IMG/VR virus record: IMGVR_UViG_3300045988_181536
Location: 64,001-128,000 of that record
Length of the DNA stretch: 64,000 nucleotides
Direction: 5' to 3' (one strand)
Origin: a virus
Both the position numbers and the translations under genes were made by a program. Positions 47,408-47,848 of this stretch are shown here, in pieces. The notes under the pieces are model-generated. The model saw only the letters and a list, made by a program, of their open reading frames with translations. It was not told the origin of the DNA and searched no databases. The number at the start of each line of letters is the position of its first letter. Position 1 is the first letter of the stretch.

Positions 47408-47848
47408 TAGATTTTTGTTCTTTTGCAATTTCTCGGACAATGGGCGTTTTAGGGATAGCGACCCTACCCCTGCCTATAGGGGAATGATAATAACTATCAG
47501 TGAAAACGCGAGTAGCTATCGTAGGAGGGACGTATGAATGTTCCCTTGAAATATGAAACTGATGCCCGATACCGGCGAGTCATGGCTTATCGATAGCGCC
47601 TTGGCTTCGTTTTGCGGTTGAGAATAGGCGTCCGAGCCCTTTTTTAGATCGACATAATTGTTTCCAAAAGTTGAGAGTTCTGATTCCCATAGCGCATAGA
47701 GTGTCTATGCGCTATTTTATTGTCCAAAAACAAGTTAAGATTCAAGGTTTAAAAGTCCTTTTCATTAAGGACTCCTTGAATCGCCTTGTTTTTACTTTAA
47801 TATTTATTCTTATTTTTTTTAGATATAACATTTAAACCCTTAGAAATT

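Follow-up and report, generated by a model that had tools for sequence, protein, structure and literature searches.

We analyzed a 64,000-nucleotide (nt) stretch of the IMG/VR virus record IMGVR_UViG_3300045988_181536 (the window, to which all coordinates refer) and, within it, a region free of open reading frames (ORFs) at 47408-47848 on the plus strand, the 5' part of which, here called element A, is a candidate structured non-coding RNA (ncRNA) linked to a tRNA gene. The phage genome is roughly 170 kb long and AT-rich. Near-identical contigs of 103-173 kb are present in IMG/VR sample 3300045988 and in ENA assemblies, and the sample names of related contigs indicate human-gut metagenomes. 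The local gene order, on the plus strand, begins with a 1305-aa ORF and a 115-aa ORF (46985-47332), the latter directly before a tRNA-Asn gene (anticodon GUU; 47336-47407), which was identified by ARAGORN and by the Rfam tRNA model (65 bits) and forms the left anchor of the cassette. The ORF-free region follows, and directly after it come a 74-aa ORF (47849-48073), a 183-aa ORF (48089-48640) and the gene of a DnaB-like helicase (48631-50199). All genes neighbouring the region lie on the same strand as tRNA-Asn. The tRNA-Asn gene has no encoded CCA, while the tRNA-Leu gene of the same window has one.

The descriptive part of the original prediction was reproduced. Both ARAGORN and Rfam make 47408 the first base past the tRNA, and the region thus lies directly downstream of tRNA-Asn, as claimed. 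The absence of any ORF of at least 60 aa was confirmed, the longest ORF overlapping 47408-47848 on either strand being 54 aa. The GC content is indeed raised locally, reaching 0.46 over 47300-47700 (200-nt windows) versus 0.18-0.32 in the flanks and 0.358 in the whole window, and the four hairpins quoted earlier were all found in the sequence. ORF-poor gaps occur elsewhere in the window too (for example, at 52585-53811), and 47408-47848 is not unique in this respect. The region is a composite of element A, a variable spacer, two 3' hairpins and a promoter-like motif. About a third of it is unremarkable, being made up of a terminator, a terminator-like hairpin and the promoter-like motif, and two thirds are a candidate new ncRNA.

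Element A (47408-47645, plus strand; ~240 nt) consists of a 24-nt trailer, a 205-nt core and a CCC/U-run. The AU-rich 3' trailer, with the sequence UAGAUUUUUGUUCUUUUGCAAUUUCU (47408-47431), is conserved along with the core in alignments A3 and A6 of the relatives described below. The core (47432-47636; GC content 0.50) is predicted to form a multi-branched RNA closed by a long-range helix of 7 bp, P1, in which CUCGGAC (47432-38) pairs with GUCCGAG (47630-36). The RNAalifold consensus and the minimum free energy (MFE) structure of the single sequence gave the same fold: within P1 are predicted P2 (47442-48/47561-67), the three short hairpins H1 (47450-54/47462-66), H2 (47467-72/47477-82) and H3 (47485-89/47495-99), a long hairpin (47511-33/47538-60) and a 3' domain (47571-86/47598-618). 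Element A ends in CCC and a U-run (47637-47645; T6 here and T4-T5 in relatives), which marks the right boundary of the module in alignments A3 and A6. The variable spacer of ~23 nt that follows (47646-47668) is deleted in relatives L001, L002, L038, L087 and L104, as seen in alignment A3 and in the L104 sequence. A scan for a promoter of element A after tRNA-Asn found no recognisable one.

Relatives of the locus were gathered through neighbouring proteins, through DNA motifs and by BLAST against all fetched loci, and were compared in alignments A1, A3 and A6. The locus was found in three states. Element A is carried by window-type phages (L001-L004, L038, L048, L050, L081, L087 and L104). Sister phages (L005, L006, L022 and L096-L103), with ~82% protein identity in the helicase and ~70% DNA identity in the flanks, carry an unrelated element, B, at exactly the site of A, between the tRNA and a nested hairpin shared by both lineages. 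At the locus of L018 and L019 there is neither tRNA nor element, and only hairpins are present.

A mosaic relative, L020, is informative on the limits of element A. Over the upstream 4.9 kb, which take in the tRNA, L020 shares 90% identity with the B-type phage L005, and the 241 nt past the tRNA are 95% identical to the element A of the window, after which the similarity ends. The L020 flanks are only 66-74% identical to the window, and its homologue of the 183-aa protein has 47% protein identity. The junction between L005-like and window-like sequence falls within the first 8 nt past the tRNA. L020, L038 and L104 retain element A behind a tRNA that is chimeric or differs in type; in L038 and L104, chimeric tRNAs are combined with an L020-like 5' half of element A. 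Comparison of these sequences indicates that element A is a discrete module moved by recombination; on the left the junction lies at the tRNA 3' end, and on the right it lies just past the U-run.

A blastn search with A and with B against GenBank phages (50,697 records) gave no match except the tRNA, and IMG/VR scans with three motifs returned the same six contigs only, plus L012, which matched the hairpin motif. A metagenome scan with the 19-mer GATGCCCGATACCGGCGAG (47566-47584) gave 70 matches, 5 of which were true copies of A; the other 65 were chance matches, the 19-mer recurring exactly as coding sequence (peptide ..MPDTGE..) in 65 unrelated GC-rich contigs. A motif scan of 185,579 species-representative genomes in GTDB gave 3 matches, none with wider similarity to A, and the two that were read lie inside a coding gene that we read as malQ-like. 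Short GC-rich probes thus give chance coding matches, and such hits call for caution. L001 and L002 have an extra 403-aa gene ~450 nt downstream of A (L002:3574-4785, minus strand), which is TnpB-like by its N-terminal motif only and is flanked by the 74-aa gene and by a 173-aa gene missing from the window. A TnpB/IS605 OrfB/Cas12f-like gene also occurs in the window, at 6812-8023 on the minus strand. We considered element A as a remnant of a nearby TnpB/IS605 element and rejected this, there being no similarity to A elsewhere in the window or in the loci.

Element B (L005:4902-5350; also in L006, L022 and L096-L103) spans ~450 nt and has two GC-rich domains, B1 and B2. Domain B1 (~190 nt) is closed by GCCAGAG/CUCUGGC, and at least three of its helices change in a compensatory way among eight variants (89-97% identical): CCGU..ACGG to CCAU..AUGG, CCUUAUCGCUAAGG to CCUUGUCGCCAAGG, and CCACU-GAAA-AGUGG to CCACC-GAGA-GGUGG. 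Domain B2 (~160 nt) is almost invariant and contains a 14-bp GC-rich hairpin with the loop UUCCUCCUUUCU, which we take to resemble the anti-Shine-Dalgarno 3' end of 16S rRNA. An Rfam search of the B locus gave no match to the element. Since a covarying element B occupies the same site as A, it lends independent support to RNA genes at this site, which would then hold structured RNAs in two independent lineages. A and B1 are alike in size and in their closed multi-hairpin architecture, and homology between them is unsupported. The covariance model R1, built from A, aligned full-length to B1 at only 10.7 bits, the two having in common a GGG(A)UAGCNACC hairpin and, after it, another hairpin. The reciprocal model R2, built from B1, failed to recover the A core; only H1 and H2 matched locally, at 3.9 bits, and background terminator-like hairpins reached 16.5 bits with the same model. 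A single family comprising A and B1 was therefore rejected, the score being at noise level and the reciprocal search having failed.

We then considered folding and covariation. The whole 441 nt folds better than 100 of 100 dinucleotide shuffles on either strand (z = -4.15 on the plus strand and -5.23 on the minus strand). Responsible for this excess are the 3' hairpins with the 12-bp stem (47689-47715) and the nested stem (47739-47782), both of which lie outside element A; the GC-rich core at 47428-47646 contains the first two hairpins quoted earlier. Among seven distinct sequences, 62 of the 70 core pairs are invariant, 2 are compensatory, 4 have one-sided changes and 2 have broken cells. The 62 pairs never vary because all copies of A are at least 95% identical. 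One compensatory change replaces U-A by C-G at 47450/47466 in H1 in three sequences, and the other replaces G-C by A-U at 47585/47599 in L003. All four one-sided changes still give standard pairs, and several substitutions are placed in the loops of H1 and H3. The covariation score of 0.043, obtained with aligned sequences that are related to each other and a structure derived from those same sequences, was equalled by 1 of 500 shuffles, and every slid control scored lower. An earlier guess at covariation, between 47463-67 and 47521-25, gave way to the pair 47450/47466 in H1, which has better support. G·U pairs account for 11 of the 70 in the predicted core fold, and the plus strand has an MFE of -66.8 kcal/mol versus -57.6 kcal/mol for the minus strand, ~9 kcal/mol in favour of the plus strand. 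The G·U pairs and the better plus-strand folding fit an RNA made in the orientation of the tRNA. Taken as a whole, the predicted pairing gives weak to moderate support for RNA structure in element A, suggestive rather than decisive.

These results divide the claim that the region is a structured ncRNA. The 5' 240 nt behave as a discrete module of the non-coding RNA type, with sharp boundaries in relatives, two compensatory changes and several wobble-compatible ones, and to this extent the claim stands; the two most stable of the hairpins that it listed lie outside that RNA. The outcome that the original prediction had named as its refutation was seen in part, as the conservation is shallow (at least 95% identity) and sister lineages replace or lack A.

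Six-frame translation of element A showed stops in all frames and no conserved ORF except one of 20 codons, which is weighed below. The long open minus-strand frame of A has no start codon in the window and has several nonsynonymous changes among relatives, and Pfam and PHROG searches with every frame of A gave no match.

Searches for known RNA families were also negative at element A. The Rfam scan that had been put forward earlier as a check was run on the window, the region, the A core and the B locus, and it returned only tRNAs and the tRNA-Leu intron. With Rfam 15 at E<=10, the sole match in 47405-47660 was a 13-bit CRISPR-DR fragment, and in 47200-48000 the tRNA alone passed, with all other matches at or below 19 bits and far under gathering. 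The group I intron model RF00028 found nothing in 47200-48000, though it scored 68.7 bits for the real intron at 1851-2105; since the model finds a real intron elsewhere in the window, the Rfam negative at A is meaningful. A decayed or split tRNA was rejected, as no second tRNA was found at E<=10 and ARAGORN with introns allowed found none split. Relaxed ARAGORN settings gave a low-scoring "tRNA-Lys" at 47611-47699, which is spurious because it spans an indel absent in relatives. Neither a diversity-generating retroelement template nor iterons or repeats were found in or around A, and the element occurs once in the window. The only antisense match of A in the window was a low-complexity 14-mer in the AU-rich trailer (BLAST E 0.64).

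Downstream of the spacer lies an intrinsic terminator (47689-47722, plus strand), called by a terminator scan that found 3 terminators versus 0.6 expected. It has a perfect 12-bp stem, ATAGCGCATAGA...TCTATGCGCTAT (47689-47715), followed by TTTTATT (TTTATTGTCC). This meets the consensus of the scan, and the likeness to intrinsic terminators covers only the 3' third of the region, not A. Between L003 (5056-5082) and the window (47689-47715) the loop of this hairpin is inverted, GAGTGTC versus GACACTT, with the stem unchanged, which looks like a hairpin-loop flip. The nested hairpin (47739-47793, plus strand) has the outer arms GATTCAAGG/CCTTGAATC, the inner stem GUCCUU/AAGGAC and a short T-run, and is common to the A-type and B-type lineages. 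Its stem (47739-47782) is followed by GCCTTGTTTTT; it is terminator-like but was not called by the scan, and it occurs once in the window. L005 and L006 have the same outer arms, and their inner stem differs by compensatory changes (GTCCTT..AAGGAC versus GTCCCAT..ATGGGAC). A hairpin with a T-run always follows element A within 13-45 nt, even where it is unrelated in sequence, and L020 has different hairpins with T-runs at the terminator position. The T-rich promoter-like motif TTATTCWTATTTTTTTTAGMTAT (47804-47826, plus strand) is conserved in L005 and L006, and its core, TTTTTTTTAGCTAT, precedes the replication genes in L020 too. The 13-mer TTTTTTTAGMTAT from the motif occurs 6 times in the window versus 2.0 expected. 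The motif is a candidate promoter of the downstream replication-gene block.

The reading we prefer, to which we give about an even chance of being right, is that element A is an accessory, horizontally exchangeable ncRNA gene that would be co-transcribed with tRNA-Asn. It draws on features seen directly in the sequences: the module boundaries, the lack of a conserved ORF and of a known family, a pairing pattern that fits the plus strand, hairpins of the terminator type, and the replacement of A by the unrelated element B in sister phages. In the most economical model, element A would be transcribed on the plus strand as a 3' extension of tRNA-Asn. Because the tRNA-Asn gene lacks an encoded CCA, we propose endonucleolytic 3' processing, in which an RNase Z-type cleavage would free an RNA starting at or near 47408. 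The 3' end of the released RNA would lie at the CCC-U6 tract, for a length of ~240 nt, or at the terminator (~315 nt), and the RNA would fold into the multi-hairpin domain closed by P1. In its biological role, it may act in trans as a small stable RNA, like T4 rnaC/rnaD.

The closest precedent is T4 (NC_000866), where a tRNA-Arg gene is followed directly by rnaD (119 nt) and rnaC (139 nt), each annotated as "small, stable RNA". T4 rnaC/rnaD and element A are both ORF-free and immediately follow the 3' end of a phage tRNA gene, in the orientation of that gene; rnaC and rnaD together span ~265 nt, similar to A, and they too have no Rfam family. There is no blastn similarity between T4 rnaC/rnaD and A. 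The 3' part of rnaC gave a marginal tRNA-Sec-like match (17.5 bits, E 0.76), its end being read as a T-arm and an acceptor-like stretch, while A has no tRNA-like signal. T4 has two short RNAs whose stability was shown experimentally, whereas A is predicted to be one P1-closed domain. To our knowledge, no function of T4 rnaC/rnaD has been reported so far. In E. coli, 3'ETS-leuZ is a functional RNA of ~50 nt that is released from a tRNA 3' trailer and acts as a base-pairing sponge of small RNAs. It is our working model for the release of A, but A has no significant complementarity elsewhere in the window. The large ornate RNAs ROOL and GOLLD of phages and prophages are also structured orphans, and in phage genomes they often have tRNA genes nearby; they are 500-800 nt long and have Rfam models, which gave no match in the window or at A.

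Several results weigh against a functional RNA. The core at 47428-47646 has a folding z of only -1.30, with 17 of 200 shuffles folding equally well, and the ~9 distinct copies of A are all at least 95% identical, so that the covariation rests on two events. In close relatives, element A is 95-100% identical and the flanking genes are 94-99% identical; since A is no better conserved than its flanks, the high identity in L020 reflects recent transfer, not deep constraint. Element A is replaced or absent in sister lineages and is thus dispensable, the U-run after P1 was not called as a terminator by the consensus scan, and the 20-codon ORF noted above is intact. Most of these points also speak for A being functionless passenger DNA, a GC-rich spacer or foreign remnant in a recombination hot spot between the tRNA and the terminators, with hairpins that are incidental and conservation that is due to recent ancestry. 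The locus is mosaic, with chimeric tRNAs, indels, the TnpB insertion nearby in L001/L002 and a 74-aa gene that is present or absent, and A is missing from two related lineages. However, each of the two double changes in A restores a pair exactly, within a hairpin stem, most of the single changes are compatible with wobble pairing on the plus strand only, and the module remained intact after its transfer into the divergent genome L020. The other occupant of the site, B, is a structured RNA with covariation, and A carries no trace of a decayed gene or a decayed tRNA. Passenger DNA is, on this evidence, a rather unlikely explanation. It is very unlikely that A serves as mRNA or leader of a 20-aa peptide, MNVPLKYETDARYRRVMAYR*, encoded at 47534-47596 on the plus strand, with the RNA structure controlling translation. 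The Shine-Dalgarno (SD)-like sequence AGGAGG (47523-47528) lies N5 before the ATG, and this arrangement is intact with its open frame in 6 of the 6 variants translated and lies in the least variable 60 nt of A. The changes in the frame, by contrast, though too few to settle whether the peptide is under purifying selection, are all nonsynonymous (3, with 0 synonymous), SD-like motifs precede only 8 of 54 genes in the window and are weak there, and in the predicted fold AGGAGG is held in a hairpin stem with the AUG in the loop. Neither a protein family match nor a counterpart ORF in element B was found, and the 20-codon ORF is probably not translated.

The position of A ahead of the gene block for the 74-aa protein, the 183-aa protein and the DnaB-like helicase would also suit a cis-acting riboswitch-like leader or attenuator that controls read-through into these replication genes, as a structured domain is followed by terminator hairpins and GGACAAU (47435-41) could pair alternatively with AUUGUCC (47720-26), beyond the terminator. 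Such a role is unlikely, given that A and the terminators behind it are not conserved as a unit: the terminators in L020 are unrelated, and the spacing differs in L001, L002 and L104. There is also no conserved alternative pairing with an expression platform and no riboswitch family match, and the conserved promoter-like motif stands between the terminators and the genes, all of which makes control of read-through very improbable. The original prediction had also offered a packaging or replication signal. A DNA-level signal of this sort (a replication origin, packaging site or protein-binding array) would be well placed beside the replication module, just ahead of the genes for the 183-aa protein and the DnaB-like helicase. 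We consider it highly improbable, since the pairing is strand-specific, with pairing-preserving changes of the G·U type that work only in a plus-strand RNA, and since A occurs once without iterons or repeats, is GC-rich, unlike an AT-rich unwinding region, and is replaced or dispensable in relatives with the same replication genes. The ORF-poor gap at 52585-53811 is a better origin candidate. The further suggestion in the original prediction of a degenerate intron or ribozyme, serving here in tRNA 3' processing as a theta/HDV (hepatitis delta virus)-like ribozyme or a group I derivative, fared worst, and we regard it as extremely unlikely. Theta ribozymes are HDV-like, cleave within ~5 nt of the tRNA 3' end in gut phages, and are defined by a P1 formed from the first ~7 nt and a nested double pseudoknot (PMC10879173). 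The position of A at a tRNA 3' end in a gut phage is compatible with such placement, and a real group I intron occurs in the tRNA-Leu gene of the same window. But theta ribozymes are minimal HDV folds and A is about four times larger; UAGAUUU (47408-14) has on inspection no downstream complement for an HDV-type P1, no HDV model or other family matched even at E<=10, and ARAGORN with introns allowed found no split tRNA here.

If element A is the exchangeable ncRNA gene that we prefer, a wider extension of this reading can be drawn, which we consider unlikely: the 3' flank of tRNA-Asn in this clade of ~170-kb human-gut phages would be a "landing pad" for structured RNAs (A, B1/B2 or none) exchanged by recombination, much as phage hot spots exchange accessory protein genes, with A and B representing a new class of trans-acting accessory RNAs. 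Such RNAs could counter host defence or help in taking over the host, for instance as decoys or sponges of a host protein that binds RNA or targets tRNAs, an idea suggested by the phage having its own tRNAs and a Pnkp-Rnl1 tRNA-repair enzyme.

Other features of the window concern tRNAs and replication. A tRNA-Leu(UAA) gene at 1820-2184, the fifth tRNA, has an encoded CCA and was missed by default ARAGORN. Its anticodon loop is split by a 278-nt group I intron at 1854-2131 (RF00028, 68.7 bits, 1851-2105), an arrangement known from cyanobacteria and plastids. At 25054-27246, a 730-aa fusion joins a polynucleotide kinase (AAA_33), a phosphatase (Metallophos) and a T4 Rnl1-type RNA ligase; judged by its domains, it would be a complete single-polypeptide tRNA-repair enzyme in a phage with five tRNAs. 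The 100-nt spacer between tRNA-Pro and tRNA-Met (12297-12397) has a stable hairpin, ACTGCGGCAGCC...GCTGCTCCCGCAGT, followed by TTTT, and may be another structured tRNA-linked spacer. The ORF-poor gap of 1.2 kb at 52585-53811 extends from a minus-strand 771-aa gene to a Toprim (primase-like) gene; it contains a direct repeat of 26 nt, with 784 nt between the copies, and numerous AT-rich inverted repeats. L018 and L020 have gaps of ~1 kb at the corresponding position, and this gap is a better candidate than 47408-47848 for an origin or a divergent control region. A ribonucleotide reductase large subunit gene interrupted by an intein lies at 55218-58664, and a 1319-aa family A DNA polymerase with an N-terminal uracil-DNA-glycosylase-like domain is encoded at 58718-62677. 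A hairpin of ~34 nt, ATGTCAACTACTCACCAGATGAACTAGTGAGCTT, and its variants are repeated at 6775-6808, 18579-18612 and 50219-50252; one copy adjoins the TnpB gene at its 3' end, another lies just past the helicase stop codon, and they could be elements resembling insertion sequence ends or terminators.

Element A is a candidate for a clade-restricted, exchangeable orphan phage RNA linked to a tRNA gene, a kind of RNA already known from T4. If A is not expressed, the finding is a mosaic intergenic spacer with ordinary terminators. If it is expressed, A would be a new orphan RNA family among the few phage RNAs carried as passengers of tRNA transcripts, and the polymorphism of A, B or no element, with its junction at the tRNA 3' end, would provide natural allele-swap material on the function of such RNAs.

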